From a virus, in the IMG/VR virus record IMGVR_UViG_3300045988_047700, positions 1 through 53,542 of that record: a DNA stretch of 53,542 nt; one strand, written 5' to 3'. The position numbers and the translations under genes were made by a program. The notes under the pieces were generated by a model. That model had not been told where the DNA came from, searched no databases, and was given only the letters and a program-made list of their open reading frames with translations. Shown piece by piece: positions 1 to 53,542 of this stretch. Positions within the stretch are counted from its first letter, which is position 1, and every line of letters begins with the position of its first letter.

Positions 1-55
1 TTGGGATGATGGTTGGAACACGAGAAAGTACCTATTAATATATGCTAAAATGTAT
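1..55. repeat. Terminal direct repeat, copy 1 (circular-contig overlap)
   Basis: The 55 nt at the window start are identical to 53488..53542 (read directly from the sequence). Confidence 0.95.
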
Positions 56-1390
56 GTCTATGTCATCTCCCGTGATAACAACCTTTTCAACACACTCTTT
101 TAGCACCTTGTTTTTCTCGGAATCCGTCAGTGTATCCCACACGTTGGACATCTCTTTTATTTTCTCTATCTTTTCTCCACGTCCGCCTTTCTCCCGGATG
201 TCTTCTGCCTTTAATTCTTCCCGTAGGTTTTTCAGTGTTTTTTCTTCTGCTTGGATGACATCTAAAAGTGTATCAGTGCCGGAGTTGCCGCTTGCGTACA
301 ATGTGTATAGGCGTTTCAGTTTTGCTTCGCTGAGTGATATCTCTTTTTCTATCATCTTCCGAGTGCTTTCAGATTCATTCTCTTTTTCTTCGACATTAAC
401 GATGAATCGTTTAAAACAGTCCTCTACTTCTTTTTCTACCACATCTGCCCGCACTTTTTTATTCTTGCAAGGGTTACCTGTCTTAGATATATGCTCTTTT
501 CCCTTGTACTGTGAGTAACATACTATCTTTGTGTACTTTCCCCACTTCTGCATCCGCATTTTAGTACCGCATTTTCCACAGTAGCACAACCCGGTAAGCA
601 TATACTTGTTGCTCACATAAGCATTTGTGGATCTCTTTTTTATCTCTTCCTGTACTTCGTAAAAAAGTTTTTCGTCTATGATCGGTTCATGCAAGCCTTG
701 GTATGTTTTCCCTTTATATTGTATTTTACCTACATAGGCTATTCGCCTAATGATGTTAGACACGAGCTTCTCCGAATGCATCCCGAGAATTTTTTGAATC
801 CTATCACACGAATATCCGTCCCGGAACATCTGGAAGATAGCTTTTACCTTTTCCGCTTCTTCCGGGATGATATGTAATATCCCATCGTTCCTGTCGTACC
901 TGTATCCATATGGTATCGCGCCACCGCCCATCCACAGTCCACGCTTTACACGTTCCACCATCCCGGCTCTTGTACGCATATAGATAACCTCACGCTCATA
1001 CTGCCCCATGACAGCATTAACGCCAAGCATTACACGATCCATCGGTGTCTCATTCCGCAAATCCTCTGTAGCTGATACTACCTCTACATTGTATTTTGGC
1101 AATAGTTTACTCACAAGCGTAAGAGTATCTACAACATCACGGCTCATTCTGTCAAGCTTATAGATGTATACTGCCTGTATTTCTCCGGCTTCTGCATCCT
1201 CCAGAAGTTTCTGTATGTTTGGCCTTTGAATATTGCTCCCGGAATATCCCCCGTCCACATACCATCTGGCTATCTTCACGCCCCTTTTCTTGGCGAGTTC
1301 CTTTATCTTGTCTTCTTGGACATCAAGACCATACTTTTCGGTCTGTGCTTCTGTAGACACTCTCATATAACCTACATTTAATTTTTTCAT
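35..1390 (-). CDS. Large serine recombinase (integrase)
   Basis: The true ATG is at 1390 (MKKLNVGYMRVSTEAQ...), after GGAGAA. It has a resolvase-type catalytic Ser motif, a recombinase domain, a Cys-rich zinc ribbon (CYCGKCG...) and a C-terminal coiled coil. Confidence 0.9.
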   Translation of the reverse strand: MKKLNVGYMRVSTEAQTEKYGLDVQEDKIKELAKKRGVKIARWYVDGGYSGSNIQRPNIQKLLEDAEAGEIQAVYIYKLDRMSRDVVDTLTLVSKLLPKYNVEVVSATEDLRNETPMDRVMLGVNAVMGQYEREVIYMRTRAGMVERVKRGLWMGGGAIPYGYRYDRNDGILHIIPEEAEKVKAIFQMFRDGYSCDRIQKILGMHSEKLVSNIIRRIAYVGKIQYKGKTYQGLHEPIIDEKLFYEVQEEIKKRSTNAYVSNKYMLTGLCYCGKCGTKMRMQKWGKYTKIVCYSQYKGKEHISKTGNPCKNKKVRADVVEKEVEDCFKRFIVNVEEKENESESTRKMIEKEISLSEAKLKRLYTLYASGNSGTDTLLDVIQAEEKTLKNLREELKAEDIREKGGRGEKIEKIKEMSNVWDTLTDSEKNKVLKECVEKVVITGDDIDIHFSIY

Positions 1391-1408
1391 GTCAATTCTC
1401 CTTTCAAC

Positions 1409-1446
1409 AAAAAAAGAATTGACCAAGATTCTATCAAGGTCAATTC
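1409..1446 (-). terminator. Rho-independent terminator just upstream of the integrase gene
   Basis: GAATTGACC / GGTCAATTC forms a 9-bp stem (1416..1424 with 1438..1446) with a 13-nt loop. It is followed on the minus strand by T7 (1409..1415). Confidence 0.6.
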
Positions 1447-14439: not shown

Positions 14440-14770
14440 TGTCTGACATATATCTATATTCTTTTTATTCTTATTCTTCTTTATATTCTTCTATTGTTGT
14501 CAACTGGCTTGCGAATTGATTGTTAATTGATTGTTATGTGGCTTGCTAACCGTTTTCACTTGACAAGCAGTTTTGCCTTATTTTTCAAGGGTTTTAGCTT
14601 GTCATTTGCTTGTCAACTGGCTTGTCAAAATTTTCGATTTTTTGAAAATTTCTTTAATTTTGGCTTGTCAATTGATTGTTATCTGAGTGTCGTTTGGCTT
14701 GCGACCAGTTGCCGTTTTGCCCTTATTTTTCAAGGGTTGTGGCTTGCTAAGTGGCTTGCGATTTGACCAA
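14440..14770. repeat. Iteron array with an AT-rich flank (putative origin of replication)
   Basis: Seven exact GGCTTG cores lie in one orientation (14506, 14540, 14619, 14662, 14696, 14741, 14753). They fall into sub-families GGCTTGCGA, GGCTTGCTAA and GCTTGTCAA. There is one inverted copy (14560..14568), ATTGATTGTTA x3, and a ~32-bp duplication (14570..14601 vs 14714..14746). An AT-rich stretch lies at 14450..14500. Confidence 0.6.
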
Positions 14771-17944: not shown

Positions 17945-18679
17945 ATGTTAACGAAAAGAGAAATGTTGGATAACTTTGCACATAACATCGAAGAAGAGCG
18001 GAAAAGCCTTGATTTTACGCAAGTTCTCTTCTCCAAGATGCTGGGTGTTTCTGTGTCCACATACAAAAATATCGTTTCACGGAAGACTAATAATCTTGAC
18101 GTTTTCTTAGCACTAAGGTTGTCGGAACTAACTCATAAATCTATCCCTGATCTCTTAGGGCATTCTTCTAAGGAATACGAGGTATTGGGAAAGTACAGGC
18201 AATTGACCGACAGACAACGTGCGTATATTCTTGGCAAGATGGATTATGAAATCTCTATGAAAGTGTTGGAAACGGATCCTGAAAACATGTTGGATGTTCT
18301 ATGTCTCACTGGTGAGATGGCTGACGGTATGATATTGGATTCCTCACACGAAGAACGGATATACTGCCCGGAATACATAAAAAAGTACGGCGAGACATTA
18401 CATTGTGGCATAAAGATAACGAGCAACCACTTGCTCCCTGTATATGTAAAGGGTGATATCATCTGCATATCCAAAAGAGTGCCAAGAAACGGTGATACCG
18501 TGATTATTATACATAAAGAAACAGGACGTGCGTATATAAGGCGGTATGTGCAGAGAGGTAAGATAAAGTTAGTCCCGATCAACGGCTTCGGTGATGTCAT
18601 AGAAGTTGATCCAAATAGTTTTGAAGACATGGAACAATGGGTAAGGTTTGGAGTTGTGATTGCGGTATTAAGAAGATAG
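17945..18679 (+). CDS. CI/LexA-like repressor (HTH plus S24-like domain)
   Basis: N-terminal HTH (FTQVLFSKMLGVSVSTYKNIVS). The C-terminal GIKITSNHLLPVYVKGDII...NGDTVIII...AYIRRY...KLVPIN aligns by eye to the LexA S24 domain. Confidence 0.7.
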   Translation: MLTKREMLDNFAHNIEEERKSLDFTQVLFSKMLGVSVSTYKNIVSRKTNNLDVFLALRLSELTHKSIPDLLGHSSKEYEVLGKYRQLTDRQRAYILGKMDYEISMKVLETDPENMLDVLCLTGEMADGMILDSSHEERIYCPEYIKKYGETLHCGIKITSNHLLPVYVKGDIICISKRVPRNGDTVIIIHKETGRAYIRRYVQRGKIKLVPINGFGDVIEVDPNSFEDMEQWVRFGVVIAVLRR

Positions 18680-29098: not shown

Positions 29099-29158
29099 GT
29101 ATTGTCCTTTCTACCGCTAAATATTTGCGGTCAGCGGGTATCTCCACATGATACCCGG
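29099..29158 (-). promoter_or_regulatory. Conserved bipartite hairpin element E1 (upstream of the TMP gene)
   Basis: Minus strand: TAACCGGGTATCATGTGGAGATACCCGCTGACCGCAAATATTTAGCGGTAGAAAGGA. It aligns with E2, with compensatory changes in both stems. Confidence 0.6.
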
Positions 29159-29749
29159 TTAATTATTTACGAGTCCGAATACTCTTCTTAATTCTTCTTT
29201 TTCTTCTTCGCTTCGCTCTGGTGTCGCTTTAAGATCAACAAGTTCTTTGTTGCTAGAATAGAATTCTTTTTCCCAACTATCCAATTTCTTCCCTTTCGAG
29301 ACTTTTTCACGAATGTTAGTGATAGTGCTGAATAGAGATTCTCCAATCTCCATGAAAAGTCCCATGAACGTCCACCAATGTAAGTACTCTTTCTCACGAA
29401 TATCCTCATGTGCCACTTTATTAATGGCCGGAATTAGAATCTTTGCATCTTTTTTCCAATCCATAAGTTGCGGTTTTTTCTTATCTCCCTTAAATCCGCA
29501 GTCGATAAACTCTTTCGCCGTCTTTAAAGCTTCTTCCCAGTCTTCTATCGGAAGATTATCAAAGTCTTCGTAGAATATAGCCAGAATCGTTGTGTATATC
29601 TCCAAGTTTTTTTCTTCCTCTGACATTCCGGCTACTATATCGGGATCATTAATAGCACAAAGAATATCTAACACGGCTCTGTAATCTGAGCGTATTCGAT
29701 ATTCTTTGCCGTTTACTCTAACAGATTTTGGAAGTTTCCAGACATCCAT
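29159..29749 (-). CDS. Gp15-family tail assembly protein
   Basis: MDVWKLPKSVRVNGKEYRIRSDYRAVLDI N-terminus, positioned before the TMP gene. Confidence 0.6.
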   Translation of the reverse strand: MDVWKLPKSVRVNGKEYRIRSDYRAVLDILCAINDPDIVAGMSEEEKNLEIYTTILAIFYEDFDNLPIEDWEEALKTAKEFIDCGFKGDKKKPQLMDWKKDAKILIPAINKVAHEDIREKEYLHWWTFMGLFMEIGESLFSTITNIREKVSKGKKLDSWEKEFYSSNKELVDLKATPERSEEEKEELRRVFGLVNN

Positions 29750-30753: not shown

Positions 30754-30814
30754 ATTATAGTCCTTTCTACCGTTAACTTTTTACGGTCAGCGAACATCTC
30801 CAATTGATGTCCGG
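30754..30814 (-). promoter_or_regulatory. Conserved bipartite hairpin element E2 (upstream of the major tail gene)
   Basis: Minus strand: TAACCGGACATCAATTGGAGATGTTCGCTGACCGTAAAAAGTTAACGGTAGAAAGGA. Confidence 0.6.
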
Positions 30815-31333
30815 TTAATTAGTTCTTATGAATACATTTCTGTATTTGAGAGACATACTAATCACCCAGTCTTGCACATTGTTTTCGTAAGTTTTGTCAA
30901 GGTATGATGGTGTGATTCTTGTAATCTCTTCTATTTTTCGTTCCTCTGTAAGTGTTGGGTAAGATGTAAGCTTATGCTTTTCGCCATCAATCACGACTGT
31001 TTGTCGTTCCAACCATTTACCTACACTATCAAGAAATTCCTTGATATCCGCTTTCATATTCGGAGAATCACGGGATGTCCTGTACACGATATAAAATGGG
31101 TAATTGCAAAGCTGATTCACCTTACCTGTTATCGATTTTTTCTCCTGTGCAACCACCGCACCGGATACCGGATAGAATGCTATTCCATCATCTTCTTTCA
31201 TGGTGGAGAATTTAAACACTTCTCCGGTTTCCAATCCCGGATACTGATTCAGCAAATCTTTAAGTGCATTTGTTACAATGTCGTATCCGTCAACATCGTA
31301 TTTCACTGTTTTTTTACTATCCACCGCCTGCAC
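30815..31333 (-). CDS. Head-tail joining / minor capsid-family protein
   Basis: 172 aa, in the connector module between the capsid and tail genes. Confidence 0.5.
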   Translation of the reverse strand: MQAVDSKKTVKYDVDGYDIVTNALKDLLNQYPGLETGEVFKFSTMKEDDGIAFYPVSGAVVAQEKKSITGKVNQLCNYPFYIVYRTSRDSPNMKADIKEFLDSVGKWLERQTVVIDGEKHKLTSYPTLTEERKIEEITRITPSYLDKTYENNVQDWVISMSLKYRNVFIRTN

Positions 31334-50293: not shown

Positions 50294-50923
50294 TTATTTA
50301 CCTCTTTTCCTTTCCGTCAGTTCTTCTCCGAACGACTTAATCTTTACAATGTTTCCTGTACATTCTTCCGGTACCTGTCCGTAAAATAGTACTGTCTCAG
50401 GTTTCAATCTTTTCAGCATCTCATTATATCCGTCCACGAACAGTGCTTTCCGCTCCATACTATTCATCACTCCGACACTGGATACTGCTACAGCACCGCC
50501 TACCGGCTCCCCGTCAAAACACCACTCAAACGATTCTCTGTCACTCCAACTGATGGTAGGCATCACATCAATACCGTACATCTGCATATATGCACCTATC
50601 CAGTGTTTGCGGAAGTGGTTGTAAATCTGTAATGCTTTTGGAAAATCAGTATAAGTGCTAAAATCCGGCGACATGATAAATCGAAACTGAGAAAGCATGT
50701 TTATGTAAGCATCTGGCTTATTCCATAATCTTTGGAATTGGTAATCGTCAAGAAAGAAATGCACGCCTTTCCCGGCTCTGTCTTTGCATGTCTTAGCTTG
50801 GTTAAATCCAATAAACTCGCACGGTTCATACTTTGTAGGTTGTATCTCTGGTATTCCGAACTCATTTACAATGTCGAATATCATTCGTTGCTGATTCTCA
50901 TAATTCATATTTTCTTTATACAT
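50294..50923 (-). CDS. DUF4417-like protein
   Basis: ATG 50923 after GGGAGGTG. VHFFLDDYQFQRLWNKPDAY...SPDFSTY pattern. Confidence 0.6.
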   Translation of the reverse strand: MYKENMNYENQQRMIFDIVNEFGIPEIQPTKYEPCEFIGFNQAKTCKDRAGKGVHFFLDDYQFQRLWNKPDAYINMLSQFRFIMSPDFSTYTDFPKALQIYNHFRKHWIGAYMQMYGIDVMPTISWSDRESFEWCFDGEPVGGAVAVSSVGVMNSMERKALFVDGYNEMLKRLKPETVLFYGQVPEECTGNIVKIKSFGEELTERKRGK

Positions 50924-51017
50924 AAAAATAGCACCTCCCACGATAATTACATCTTACCGTCAGAAGTGCTATTTCATTGTCCCCGTTATTTAGTTTTATT
51001 TCTATTTTGATACTTAT

Positions 51018-51078: not shown

Positions 51079-51107
51079 TTGACTTTTTATCTTTTTTAGA
51101 TTAATAT
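51079..51107 (+). promoter_or_regulatory. Near-consensus sigma-70 promoter of the small-RNA gene
   Basis: TTGACT (51079..51084), 17 nt, TAATAT (51102..51107). Back-to-back with the minus-strand promoter 32 bp away. Confidence 0.55.
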
Positions 51108-51159
51108 ATATCTATCAGCAATCTTTGTTGATTCTCACGGCTCCATGATTTTCGTGAGT

Positions 51160-51195
51160 GTCGTTCCAGTCAATGGTGGAACGTTGAGTTGAAAG
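51160..51195 (+). CRISPR. Solitary type I-C-like CRISPR repeat unit (single copy)
   Basis: GTCGTTCCAgtcaatggTGGAACGTTGAGTTGAAAG has a 5' GTCG, a 7-bp hairpin and a tail ending TTGAAAG. Canonical I-C repeats read GTCGC-hairpin-GTGGATTGAAAC/T. Confidence 0.45.
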
Positions 51196-51227
51196 ATGTT
51201 AGAATTTAAGAAGAAATTCAGAATCTA

Positions 51228-51254
51228 GGTATAGCTTTTAGCTATGCCTTTTTT
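51228..51254 (+). terminator. Rho-independent terminator of the small RNA
   Basis: GGTATAGC / GCTATGCC (one G-U pair) plus T6. Overlaps the last codons of the convergent cas8c-like gene. Confidence 0.7.
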
Positions 51255-52093
51255 CTTTCATATTCTTTTACCCATTTCTTGTATTCTTCCGGCAATTCTT
51301 CTTGATCCTTTAAAATCTTATATGCCCAAGAATCACCCTCGTAAATCATGAATTGTAATGTGTGAATAATTTTCTGAGACGCAATGTACCCAGGCGCTAT
51401 CGTTGGCATCCCGTCCAATTGCTTCGGTGTTACCATAAATAATTTCGTTTGATCTGCCGGATTGCGAATCCCCTTAGGGTACTTGTCTGGTATATAATCT
51501 GGTTCTCCTGTAATTCCGCAAATACCATTCTTCTCGAGTGTAGAAATATAATAATCTCTCCACTGCGTGCTTATAGTTCCTCTATCCATTAATCCGGCAT
51601 AGACTACTTCATCCCTATATCTCGAATTAAAAAGCATATGTGTCTCTTCCTTGGTTAACACAGAAAATATTATCATAAGTTTTTCCTCTGATGTATCTAA
51701 TTTTTCAGAAACTGGTTTGATATCATAGCGTATAGTTCTTTTGCTCAAGTATTGATATGTGCTCTTCGCTACCGGGTCATCTACGCTTTCTATATATTTC
51801 CTCAACTGCTCCATATATGCTGTATGACGGTTTTTATATTGTGGATAGTCTCCGCATACATATGACATATTGTCGTGAATCGGGTGTGGCGCTATCCCAG
51901 ATGTCCTACTTTCTGAATTGATCGTACACGGGATGGAGCACCTTTCGTTCTTCGTTGCTGTTGCTCCAATGAAATTTCCATATGCATCTATCAAAACTCT
52001 GACATCTGGTCTTATTCTGATATGTGCAATCGGAATAACGCTTTCCACTCCAAGTATTTCATATTGTTTTAAAATTTCGTTCCATTCGCTCAT
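51242..52093 (-). CDS. Orphan Cas8c/Csd1 N-terminal-half homologue
   Basis: 283 aa from ATG 52093. MSEWNEILKQYE..., IPCTINSESRTSGIAPHPIHDNMSYVCGDY (compare Csd1 vP..kRTSGIAPnfLwDn.eYvLG) and GICGITGE (compare G.C..TGE). Full-length Cas8c is about 600 aa. Confidence 0.6.
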   Translation of the reverse strand: MSEWNEILKQYEILGVESVIPIAHIRIRPDVRVLIDAYGNFIGATATKNERCSIPCTINSESRTSGIAPHPIHDNMSYVCGDYPQYKNRHTAYMEQLRKYIESVDDPVAKSTYQYLSKRTIRYDIKPVSEKLDTSEEKLMIIFSVLTKEETHMLFNSRYRDEVVYAGLMDRGTISTQWRDYYISTLEKNGICGITGEPDYIPDKYPKGIRNPADQTKLFMVTPKQLDGMPTIAPGYIASQKIIHTLQFMIYEGDSWAYKILKDQEELPEEYKKWVKEYERKKA

Positions 52094-52103
52094 TTTTCCC
52101 ACT

Positions 52104-52484
52104 TTATGCAATTTCAATCACTTCTGCTTCTTCAACAATTACTTCGTTTTCGTCATTCCCATAAGAGTAAGAATCCCCACCGATTATTACAATGTTGTTT
52201 CCATCGTAGATAGATGATTCTTCAATAGCTCTTTCGATTATCTCTTTTGCTTCTTCTGCATCATCAGTGTCAATCAGTTCAAACATTGCGTATCCACATA
52301 TGCCGTCCATTTCCTCTGGTTCTTCTGTGTCATATGAACTGCACTCATATTCTTCATTCCACTCAAAGCTGTTTCTGCAAATGTCACCAATTTTATATTC
52401 TTCATCCGGGCAGCAATGGCGAATTGCTACCACACTATAATCATTTTCTTTAATTGTTTCTAAGATTTTTTCTACATTCATCAT
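52104..52484 (-). CDS. Highly acidic early protein
   Basis: 126 aa, Asp/Glu-rich throughout. AGGAGG 8 nt upstream. First gene after promoter P1. Confidence 0.6.
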   Translation of the reverse strand: MMNVEKILETIKENDYSVVAIRHCCPDEEYKIGDICRNSFEWNEEYECSSYDTEEPEEMDGICGYAMFELIDTDDAEEAKEIIERAIEESSIYDGNNIVIIGGDSYSYGNDENEVIVEEAEVIEIA

Positions 52485-52514
52485 TGTTCTTACCTCCTAT
52501 AATGTGTTCCTCTC

Positions 52515-52555
52515 TTAACTGTCTTTATTATATCATAGTGGTGTCCACTAGTCAA
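52515..52555 (-). promoter_or_regulatory. Consensus promoter P1 with embedded palindromic operator
   Basis: Minus strand: TTGACT-AGTGGACACCACTATGA-TATAAT (17-nt spacer). Palindrome TAGTGG-ACA-CCACTA. 40/41 identical to 53304..53344. Confidence 0.7.
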
Positions 52556-52561
52556 TAGTTT

Positions 52562-52744
52562 TCATTTATTTTTCTTTATAGTTATCACACCGTCTTTTTC
52601 TTCTAGGACAACACTTCTATCCTCTTCCGTAACGCCTAGTGCCTTTATCATCCCTACCGGAATAGAAATCCGGTAGTTTTTCGTGTTCTTTCCGGATGTT
52701 CCGCCGGCTTTGTTTATCATTACGTTTCTGCTTACTTTCTCCAT
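52562..52744 (-). CDS. AbrB/SpoVT-type DNA-binding protein
   Basis: 60 aa. YRISIPVGMIKALGVTEEDRSVVLEEKDGVITIKK is a SpoVT-AbrB swapped-hairpin motif. Confidence 0.65.
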   Translation of the reverse strand: MEKVSRNVMINKAGGTSGKNTKNYRISIPVGMIKALGVTEEDRSVVLEEKDGVITIKKNK

Positions 52745-52763: not shown

Positions 52764-52997
52764 CTACTTCAAATTTACGTGTTCGCTTTTGTCCCAACAA
52801 ATATATTTTTTTACCATGTTCAAAAATAAAATGTGACAAAAATCCGGCTTTCTGCTTCGTGGTTTATAAGTTTCAATTGAGACTTTAGCAAAATCACTGT
52901 TTCCAATTTTATCAACAGCAATTATTTTTATTCGCCATTTTGAATCTACTGCTCCATATTCAATCATAGCATTTTTTAATTGATCCTGTAACCCCAT
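52764..52997 (-). CDS. Hypothetical early protein
   Basis: 77 aa. GGGGGAAG upstream. Confidence 0.5.
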   Translation of the reverse strand: MGLQDQLKNAMIEYGAVDSKWRIKIIAVDKIGNSDFAKVSIETYKPRSRKPDFCHILFLNMVKKYICWDKSEHVNLK

Positions 52998-53013: not shown

Positions 53014-53274
53014 TTATGCTATCGTTGATTTCGGGATCCATGCTTTCCATCCCTTATAACTCCCTACCACATCACCAGTCGAAAGGACAACTTCTACTGC
53101 CTTTTCGCTTTCTTTCAATACCTCAATAACTTTTACGACAACATATCCATTCTCTGATATAACCATTCCATTTTCATCTCTGCTATAGATATCAATATAT
53201 GAGTTATATCTTTCAGCGGTGTTTTGTATTTTATCAATAACCCATTCTTTTACTTTTACATATCCTGTTGTCAT
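53014..53274 (-). CDS. Hypothetical early protein
   Basis: 86 aa. AGGAGGTAAAAAG upstream. First gene after promoter P2. Confidence 0.55.
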   Translation of the reverse strand: MTTGYVKVKEWVIDKIQNTAERYNSYIDIYSRDENGMVISENGYVVVKVIEVLKESEKAVEVVLSTGDVVGSYKGWKAWIPKSTIA

Positions 53275-53303
53275 CTTTTTACCTCCTGTGTTATGCTCCT
53301 TTA

Positions 53304-53344
53304 TTAACTGTCTTTATTATAACATAGTGGTGTCCACTAGTCAA
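53304..53344 (-). promoter_or_regulatory. Consensus promoter P2 with the same palindromic operator
   Basis: Minus strand: TTGACT-AGTGGACACCACTATGT-TATAAT. Near-identical copy of P1. Confidence 0.7.
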
Positions 53345-53487: not shown

Positions 53488-53542
53488 TTGGGATGATGGT
53501 TGGAACACGAGAAAGTACCTATTAATATATGCTAAAATGTAT
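53488..53542. repeat. Terminal direct repeat, copy 2
   Basis: Identical to 1..55. The length fits a k-mer assembly overlap of a circular genome. Confidence 0.95.

Follow-up and report, generated by a model that had tools for sequence, protein, structure and literature searches.

The viral record IMGVR_UViG_3300045988_047700, of which the whole 53,542-nucleotide (nt) stretch was analysed (the window), carries a gene whose product is homologous to the N-terminal domain (NTD) of Cas8c/Csd1, the large subunit of type I-C CRISPR systems; we name it Cas8cN. The order on the minus strand is a promoter/operator cassette, three small open reading frames (ORFs), another copy of the cassette, the gene of a very acidic protein and finally Cas8cN, and a small-RNA unit runs convergently towards it (Table 1). 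A longer reading of Cas8cN could begin with a TTG codon at position 52117; its homologues agree on the ATG start instead.

Homology of Cas8cN to the N-terminal domain of Cas8c

The relationship to Cas8c is visible in sequence profiles as well as in the predicted structure. Cas8cN matches the Pfam family PF09709 (Cas_Csd1) with an E value of 1.5e-19 and 70.6 bits (cut-off 27), its residues 11-212 aligning with profile positions 5-206 of 559. Cas8c models of PADLOC also match (best E 2.7e-29), and hhalign aligns the Cas8cN family with a profile of 50 full-length Cas8c proteins (E 7e-50, probability 100). The NCBIfam equivalog TIGR01863 gives the product 40.4 bits for a cut-off of 218.65, short of the score of a full-length protein. 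The AlphaFold2 model (predicted local distance difference test score, pLDDT, 82.6; predicted template modelling score, pTM, 0.77) was compared with the PDB by Foldseek; at E<=0.001 this returned five matches, all of them Cas8c chains of I-C Cascade (the CRISPR-associated complex for antiviral defence) from Neisseria lactamica and Desulfovibrio vulgaris (E 2e-6 to 2e-4, probability 1.0, query TM score 0.40-0.56).

The hhalign alignment pairs residues 1-251 of Cas8cN with residues 1-282 of 627 in Cas8c; residues 252-283 form a family-specific helical tail that has no counterpart there. N. lactamica Cas8c is divided into the NTD (1-259), a wedge (260-348), an adaptor (349-457) and a Cas11-like C-terminal domain (CTD; 458-582) (10.1101/2023.08.05.552134), and on this map Cas8cN is the NTD alone. 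Cas8cN lacks the wedge, adaptor and Cas11-like domains, and tblastn detected no Cas8c C-terminal half. Cas8cN is a homologue of the Cas8c NTD with an NTD-like fold, amounting to about 44% of a Cas8c of some 630 amino acids (aa). The first-pass annotation of this DNA, made from the letters alone, had proposed an orphan, half-length Cas8c/Csd1 homologue; the orphan homologue is confirmed by the Pfam, hhalign and Foldseek results, and the product is indeed N-terminal only, but it comprises the NTD and therefore less than half of the protein.

Nearly all conserved motifs of the Cas8c NTD are retained in the short family, including the block around the loop that interacts with the protospacer-adjacent motif (PAM; S60, R63, P69, H70, D74, Y78) as well as C192-T195-G196 and Y236-Q240-K241, and no block of the family is conserved more strongly than the surroundings of this loop. 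The three motifs quoted in the first-pass annotation fall on conserved blocks of genuine Cas8c. One block that full-length Cas8c proteins keep with little or no variation, LISxND...RGR, is missing from the short family, where a low-confidence loop takes its place. The glutamine wedge Q212 of D. vulgaris was also considered; by profile alignment it falls on a G/A position of Cas8cN, an assignment too uncertain to interpret. In Cas8c, the NTD serves PAM recognition and contact with Cas3. In the I-C system of N. lactamica the Cas3 helicase domain touches the Cas8 NTD and its anchor loop enters a conserved NTD pocket, and the wedge domain carries the Cas3 recruit loop (10.1101/2023.08.05.552134). 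The missing part had been described as Cas3-recruiting, which holds for the recruit loop of the absent wedge, but the NTD itself contains the pocket for the anchor loop.

Reaching Cas8c among PDB sequences took profiles; phmmer with the single Cas8cN sequence or with one full-length Cas8c found nothing significant there. Cas8cN has no structural match in the viral library BFVD, no family in PHROGs and no match in the INPHARED phage collection, either at the DNA level or by tblastn.

A word-indexed search returned 71 homologues, all with the Csd1 N-terminal match alone; 70 of them measure 236-333 aa and the remaining one is a 464-aa fusion. When 1.84 billion representatives were searched exhaustively with HMMER, the short family scored 180-397 bits, and full-length Cas8c proteins (595-666 aa) stayed below it with at most 144 bits. 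A neighbour-joining tree separated the short proteins from 83 full-length N-termini (bootstrap 49/50) and gave the short family a diversity about equal to that of the full-length set. On these comparisons the short Cas8cN family is a monophyletic clade apart from bona fide Cas8c. Over 83 pairs drawn from 14 close relatives, the median ratio of non-synonymous to synonymous substitution rates (dN/dS) was 0.14, with dS of up to 0.48; Cas8cN is under purifying selection.

Some members depart from the simple architecture. Homologue P0017 has an N-terminal helix-turn-helix (HTH) fused to Cas8cN, and P0011 combines Cas8cN with an extension of ~180 aa bearing a P-loop-like motif. P0058 (242 aa) is named 'type I-C CRISPR-associated protein Cas8c/Csd1' by NCBI; this name may mislead the CRISPR typing of genomes and calls for caution in annotation.

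Mobile elements and neighbours of Cas8cN

All members of the family lie on mobile elements, namely Lachnospiraceae phages, prophage ends and conjugative elements, and outside cas operons. In IMG/VR we counted 94 loci with Cas8cN. No other cas gene occurs in the gene lists of the relatives, and tblastn found no remnant of Cas5d, Cas3, Cas7 or the Cas8c C-terminal half in 105 related loci. The same is true of the window, as the first-pass annotation had stated: its 79 ORFs were scanned with NCBIfam (the complete list of 19 families), Pfam and PADLOC, and Cas8c/Csd1 was the sole Cas family to appear; tblastn of the window with Cas5d, Cas3, Cas7 and four Cas8c C-terminal halves was negative, and no direct-repeat array was found in it.

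The window itself has an identical 55-nt sequence at both ends, which makes the genome, circular or terminally redundant, a complete one; it measures about 53.49 kb. Genes for a serine recombinase and a CI-like repressor, along with ERF, terminases, portal, holin and endolysin, make this gut phage a temperate one. In the 60% clade (P0012, 202 contigs), phages of ~50 kb show the same synteny as the window and carry Tad4 upstream; in the related phages L001-L006, Tad4 lies a few kb upstream of Cas8cN (near 37-940). The 40% clade belongs to a conjugative element with an adjoining TraG, in which repeated operators, a ribbon-helix-helix (RHH) gene, the acidic gene and Cas8cN follow one another. In the P0035 clade, the locus is found at prophage ends adjoining host genes, with the order consensus promoter, Cas8cN, an overlapping 62-aa HTH protein (HTH_3) and terminator, after which comes a separate unit for the acidic protein. 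Altogether, the promoters with palindromes, the HTH or RHH partners or fusions, the co-inherited acidic family and the stand-alone repeat-like RNA units make these loci look like anti-CRISPR (acr)/anti-CRISPR-associated (aca) or anti-defence loci.

Table 1. Positions of features in the window and, where a locus is named, in related loci
Feature	Position	Strand	Remarks
Identical 55-nt ends	1-55, 53488-53542
Serine recombinase	35-1426	(-)
Two direct-repeat pairs	14505-14746		50 nt and 31 nt; spacing 156 and 145 nt
CI-like HTH + S24 repressor	17945-18679	(+)
69-nt direct repeat	29100-29168, 30756-30824		81% identical
DUF4417 gene	50294-50941	(-)	PHROG 940, annotated 'nuclease'
Convergent small-RNA unit	51079-51257	(+)	Promoter TTGACT-17-TAATAT at 51079-51107
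Hairpin 1 of RNA unit	51134-51158	(+)
Repeat-like hairpin + handle	51160-51195	(+)	GTCGTTCCAGTCAATGGTGGAACGTTGAGTTGAAAG
Spacer-like segment	51196-51226	(+)	31 nt
Intrinsic terminator of RNA unit	51227-51249 + T run	(+)	Overlaps Cas8cN stop codon 51242-51244
Cas8cN ORF	51242-52093	(-)	ATG start, 283 aa, N-terminus MSEWNEILKQYE
Acidic protein (acidic family A)	52104-52484	(-)	126 aa, 37 D/E vs 7 K/R
69-nt promoter/operator cassette	52487-52555	(-)	Includes ribosome-binding site
Sigma-70 promoter	52527-52555	(-)	TTGACT-17-TATAAT, TG-extended, 11/12 consensus matches
Palindrome	52536-52550		TAGTGG-N3-CCACTA
AbrB/MazE (SpoVT)-type DNA-binding protein	52562-52744	(-)	60 aa; PF04014 E 4e-5; phrog_2329
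Second 69-nt cassette copy	53276-53344	(-)	87% identical; heads ORFs 53014-53274, 52764-52997, 52562-52744
Acidic family A, L001	5605-5988
DUF4417 gene, L001	7810-8442
Acidic family A, L019	6275-6661
Acidic family A, L024	9641-9982
Repeat unit, L024	9368-9480		Upstream of acidic gene and Cas8cN; Enterocloster lavalensis
Repeat unit, L079	3770-3925	(-)	Divergent, 150 bp upstream of Cas8cN; L079/L080 are 48%-clade phages
DUF4417 gene, L079	6166-6828
Two tandem repeat units, L104	3140-3300, 3340-3480		More diverged, not significant; same position as the L024 unit

The acidic gene and Cas8cN stand behind a promoter that the first-pass annotation had called strong and early. The strength agrees with the near-complete match to the consensus and the TG extension; that it is used early is something we infer. 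A palindrome is situated between its hexamers, and both cassettes carry a near-consensus promoter together with the palindrome, which looks like a shared operator of some repressor. The AbrB/MazE-like gene lies directly upstream of the Cas8cN promoter, and its product, whose PF04014 match is just under the Pfam cut-off, may be regarded as a candidate aca-like regulator.

The protein encoded upstream of Cas8cN is as acidic as had been noted from the sequence. Acidic family A, to which it belongs, comprises proteins of 113-128 aa with the motifs IR..IGD, LDGTCG and YxYGNDExEVI; it is co-inherited with Cas8cN in five clades, at identities down to 39% and in either gene order. In other Cas8cN clades, unrelated small acidic proteins take its place. 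None of the 22 homologues of the family is annotated and no Pfam family matches it; the best PDB match of its structural model (pLDDT 80) is RbcS-like and not significant (E 0.087). The acidic protein is a candidate either for an inhibitor in its own right or for a partner of Cas8cN.

Other genes of these elements bear on defence. One window ORF matched a Tad2-like anti-Thoeris domain, the position of the ORF not being found in two further scans, and there are two matches to cytosine-5 DNA methyltransferases in the window; together with Tad4 in relatives, these indicate a broad counter-defence repertoire. A DUF4417 gene recurs within ~1-2 kb of Cas8cN in differing phage lineages. Elsewhere in the window, the two direct-repeat pairs occupy a gene-poor stretch between divergent modules and are iteron- or operator-like in appearance, and the copies of the 69-nt direct repeat are located ahead of two structural-region genes.

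The small-RNA unit of the window has its own promoter and ends with an intrinsic terminator that overlaps the stop codon of Cas8cN, so that RNA and gene are predicted to overlap by about 13 nt; the convergent overlap described in the first-pass annotation is thus recovered. The fold of the unit has a z-score of -3.9, and across 23 relatives the unit hardly varies, even though the gene next to it shows dS values of up to 0.48. Changes in the stems are G-U compatible on the plus strand only. The handle differs among close relatives (GTTGAAAG, GTTAAAAG, GTTAAAAA), and the remainder of the unit is near-invariant. A covariance model was built from seven I-C repeats and solitary repeat units of Camara-Wilpert et al. 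(PMC10651486); it places the unit exactly on the repeat-like hairpin, but weakly (8.6 bits, E 7.4). Of the 'repeat-bearing' RNA that had been announced, the repeat-like hairpin is there and the likeness to I-C repeats is weak. Rfam has no family for this RNA. A metagenome scan for arrays with CGTTGAGTTRAAAR-N28-42-GTCGTT gave 78 stretches, 77 with a single match and one with two matches on opposite strands; as none of them is array-like, no cognate host array was found. For the spacer-like segments, the window and loci L001-L105 yielded no target, apart from AT-rich matches of the kind expected by chance.

Over 616 kb of related loci, the I-C covariance model gave significant scores only for L079/L080 (28 bits) and L024 (21 bits), and these units lie less than 600 bp from Cas8cN in two different clades. 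L104 shares the segment downstream of the repeat with L024 and has a different repeat hairpin. Each unit consists of its own promoter, a hairpin with a (G)ATTGAAA-type handle, a segment of 27-42 nt and a terminator hairpin, and this predicted layout is that of a mature I-C CRISPR RNA (crRNA). Putative stand-alone I-C repeat-like RNAs therewith adjoin at least three Cas8cN clades; in most clades, including the most abundant one (P0012) and the conjugative-element clade, the retrieved flanks contain no RNA of this kind. In the 60% clade, a 211-aa gene occupies the place of the RNA; it is a zinc-ribbon protein and not a Cas fragment. A hairpin followed by ATTGAAAT at about 7237 (L084, L091, L098) was set aside, as next to no spacer-like segment follows the hairpin.

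Possible functions of Cas8cN

We consider an anti-CRISPR that acts by subunit mimicry to be the most likely and best-supported reading of Cas8cN, because the family is monophyletic and confined to mobile elements, is under purifying selection, resides in acr/aca-like loci and has acidic and I-C repeat-like neighbours. The first-pass annotation had put forward the same idea, which gains partial support from the mobile context, the selection, the locus architecture and the neighbouring genes. That Cas8cN interferes with type I-C CRISPR at all is, as judged from sequence, probable; its particular mechanism, docking at the foot of Cascade, is offered as a tentative model that could well be wrong.

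According to this model, the NTD of Cas8c would go back to a single capture from a type I-C system, followed by diversification on Lachnospiraceae phages, prophages and conjugative elements. Cas8cN would be made from its own consensus promoter upon entry or in the lysogen, and the free NTD would take the docking site at the foot formed by Cas5c, Cas7 and the crRNA 5' handle, where the mobile NTD of the host Cas8c normally has its home. The docked Cas8cN might exclude or uncouple the host NTD, so that the complex would still assemble, with PAM recognition being uncoupled from R-loop formation and from the recruitment of Cas3. AcrIB3 has been shown to follow this logic of a defective subunit. 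The acidic partner and, in some clades, the repeat-mimic RNA could be separate or cooperating inhibitors of one locus.

Several considerations weigh against such an inhibitor. Solved I-C Cascades show a flexible Cas8c NTD, the body of Cas8c being held by its middle and C-terminal parts; since the NTD is mobile in these structures, a free NTD may bind Cascade weakly, which weakens the docking model. The PAM-loop region is strongly conserved, and a pure assembly poison is not obviously in need of it. The conserved pairing with an acidic protein may point to a complex of two proteins that is directed at another target. The small RNA of the window is not significantly I-C-like. Finally, the host of the phage is indicated only by IMG/VR predictions for relatives, which name Fusicatenibacter, Blautia_A and Enterocloster, and a type I-C system in it is presumed.

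The pocket for the Cas3 anchor loop makes a decoy for Cas3 a serious rival, even if we consider it unlikely. The free NTD would expose the groove that takes the anchor loop and thereby titrate Cas3 away from Cascade, where the same groove accepts the loop only after full R-loop formation. Cas8cN retains the whole NTD core, and AcrIF3, a mimic of part of Cas8f, provides a precedent; the recruit loop of the wedge domain, which forms the other half of the 'handshake', is however missing from Cas8cN.

The repeat-like RNAs permit another explanation, to which we give slightly less credence than to the Cas3 decoy. Cas8cN and the phage RNA could join host Cas5c and Cas7, either in a dead-end complex that sequesters Cas5c or, in a Cracr-like manner, in a mini-Cascade blind to Cas3, by which a host promoter would be silenced. 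After cleavage by Cas5c, the RNA would consist of a 5' handle, a segment of 27-42 nt and a 3' hairpin, and would resemble a mature I-C crRNA. Besides the window clade, L079/L080, L024 and L104 (the last with two) have units of this kind next to Cas8cN; the PAM-loop region is conserved, and viral crRNA-like RNAs that reprogramme Cas proteins often occur beside anti-CRISPR (Acr) proteins (10.1101/2024.10.29.618823). Most clades, among them those of P0012 and of the conjugative elements, nevertheless lack the RNA in the fetched flanks, and cooperation with it therefore cannot be the general mechanism, though it is possible in the RNA-bearing clades. Furthermore, no target of a spacer-like segment was found in the window or in L001-L105, the handle varies among close relatives and the window RNA attains just 8.6 bits against I-C repeats. 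The retargeting of host Cas5/Cas7 with the phage RNA, which the first-pass annotation had named as its second option, consequently fares badly: the most abundant clades have no RNA and no target of a spacer segment was found. A more elaborate version, which we deem improbable, would unite Cas8cN, its acidic partner and the crRNA-like RNA in one system that rebuilds host Cas5c/Cas7 into a Cas3-blind complex. Such a viral 'hybrid Cascade', in which the virus would supply one subunit and the guide and the host the other subunits, may be a sink for the single Cas5c on which crRNA processing depends, or a phage-programmed silencer.

Cas8cN could also have been exapted for a role unrelated to CRISPR, for instance in binding DNA or in regulation, or in countering some other defence jointly with the acidic protein. 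The tight co-inheritance with acidic family A, whichever of the two genes comes first, would fit such a role, AcrVIA2 is a case of a Cas homologue acting on a system to which it is unrelated, and anti-Thoeris-type genes occur in the neighbourhood. Yet significant I-C repeat mimics adjoin Cas8cN in independent clades and nearly all core motifs of the Cas8c NTD are kept, and we rate this exaptation as distinctly improbable. Fainter still is the prospect of a decoy for rival Acr proteins, by which the NTD of a prophage or of an integrative and conjugative element would soak up Acrs that bind the PAM site and so preserve host immunity against superinfecting phages. Several I-C Acrs do bind the Cas8c NTD at this site (AcrIF2, AcrIC4, AcrIC5 and AcrIC9 types), it is around the PAM-interaction loop that the family is best conserved, and many copies reside in lysogens or conjugative elements; the co-location with repeat-mimic RNAs and other anti-defence genes, however, points to counter-defence, and in this phage the gene sits behind a promoter apparently active on infection. 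A non-functional fragment of a decayed phage-borne I-C operon, as a partial cas gene without partners might suggest and as the first-pass annotation had envisaged for relatives, is effectively refuted by the dN/dS of 0.14, by a length and end point conserved in a family as diverse as Cas8c itself, by the absence of cas remnants from 105 loci and by the family's own promoters and regulators.

Comparison with known systems

Genuine Cas8c/Csd1 (PF09709, TIGR01863; PDB 8DEJ, 8G9U) shares the NTD motifs and fold with Cas8cN, but it additionally possesses the wedge, adaptor and Cas11-like domains, an internal Cas11c ORF and a cas operon, all of which are missing here. Orphan viral cas genes have been described before, and the first-pass impression that nothing comparable was known went too far in view of orphan cas8c in a published table, AcrIB3/AcrIB4 and AcrIC5-RacrIC1. 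An inventory of 358 such genes was compiled by Katz et al. (10.1101/2023.06.24.545427; Nature 2024), who also found that AcrIB3 (Cas5) and AcrIB4 (Cas8b-CTD) inhibit type I-B via a defective Cascade. Their Table S3 includes orphan cas8c matches in Lachnospiraceae phages, obtained by tblastn only, with no domain analysis or function and with no mention of an acidic partner, HTH partners or repeat-like RNAs (10.1101/2023.06.24.545427). Six uncultivated viral genomes (UViGs) are common to this table and to our IMG/VR matches (3300045988_008992, 3300029739_000022, 3300029729_000184, 3300029101_000235, 3300030432_000005 and 3300029660_000034), and the Cas8cN family had therefore already been flagged, though not analysed, as orphan viral cas8c. 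Table S3 also lists orphan I-C cas7 in Lachnospiraceae/Ruminococcaceae phages, on contigs distinct from the Cas8cN loci (10.1101/2023.06.24.545427); other I-C subunits may have been co-opted too.

A close parallel in kind is AcrIB4 of Listeria, which like Cas8cN is a fragment of a large subunit (Cas8b) on a mobile element, outside a cas operon and in a clade of its own. AcrIB4 has been assayed and inhibits its cognate type I system, whereas inhibition by Cas8cN is predicted from sequence. The two have no region in common: AcrIB4 represents the last ~90 residues of Cas8b, that is the Cas11-like CTD, and Cas8cN the opposite end, a PAM-recognising NTD of ~250 residues from subtype I-C. AcrIB3 resembles the proposed Cas8cN in its defective-subunit logic, in which a Cas homologue stands in place of the host subunit (reviewed in PMC13131331). 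An element of interaction, the 'hook', is gone from it and a loop has been added, and the protein is built into Cascade. AcrIB3 differs, however, in deriving from another subunit, in being full-length and in having its entry into Cascade demonstrated by immunoprecipitation; Cas8cN is a single domain whose entry we infer. AcrIF3 likewise mimics a part of the large subunit (Cas8f) and would be the model for a possible Cas3 decoy, but it has no detectable sequence homology to Cas8f, imitates a helical bundle and binds Cas2/3, whereas Cas8cN has plain homology to Cas8c and corresponds to a different domain.

Precedents also exist for the RNA. Camara-Wilpert et al. (2023, PMC10651486) showed an I-C operon of acr and racr, AcrIC5-RacrIC1, and Liu et al. 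described viral crRNA-like RNAs (Cracr) that cooperate with Acr proteins (10.1101/2024.10.29.618823). As in some Cas8cN loci, a protein (an I-C inhibitor there, a candidate here) stands beside a solitary I-C repeat RNA with a promoter of its own or a shared one. In AcrIC5-RacrIC1 this protein, a small acidic Acr, has no relationship to Cas proteins, and the RNA follows 11 nt downstream on the same transcript; these Cas8cN loci, in contrast, have a Cas-derived protein and an RNA in a separate convergent, divergent or upstream unit, the window copy being a diverged repeat. Our literature searches brought up no paper on a Cas8c-derived inhibitor and none in which a Cas-derived protein is combined with a repeat RNA. 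The first-pass annotation had considered the pairing undescribed, which, within these searches, stands for the combination and not for its parts, each of which has precedents. The conserved acidic partner and the recurrent repeat-mimic RNAs were not found described in the literature searched either, and the acidic protein family and the new I-C repeat-mimic RNAs are hereby flagged as candidate inhibitors.

Cas8cN can thus be placed among the Cas-derived anti-CRISPR candidates as a new, domain-swapped variant, which draws on that end of the large subunit which recognises the PAM and not on the Cas11-like end. It would represent a natural experiment on which surfaces of Cas8c suffice for binding to Cascade or Cas3, and it could serve as an off-switch for type I-C genome-editing tools. 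A 2024 review asked why repeats were widely recruited as viral inhibitors and Cas proteins apparently were not (PMC11656645); if our reading is true, Cas8cN would be a second and abundant example of the co-option of a cas gene, spread over the phages and conjugative elements of gut Lachnospiraceae.

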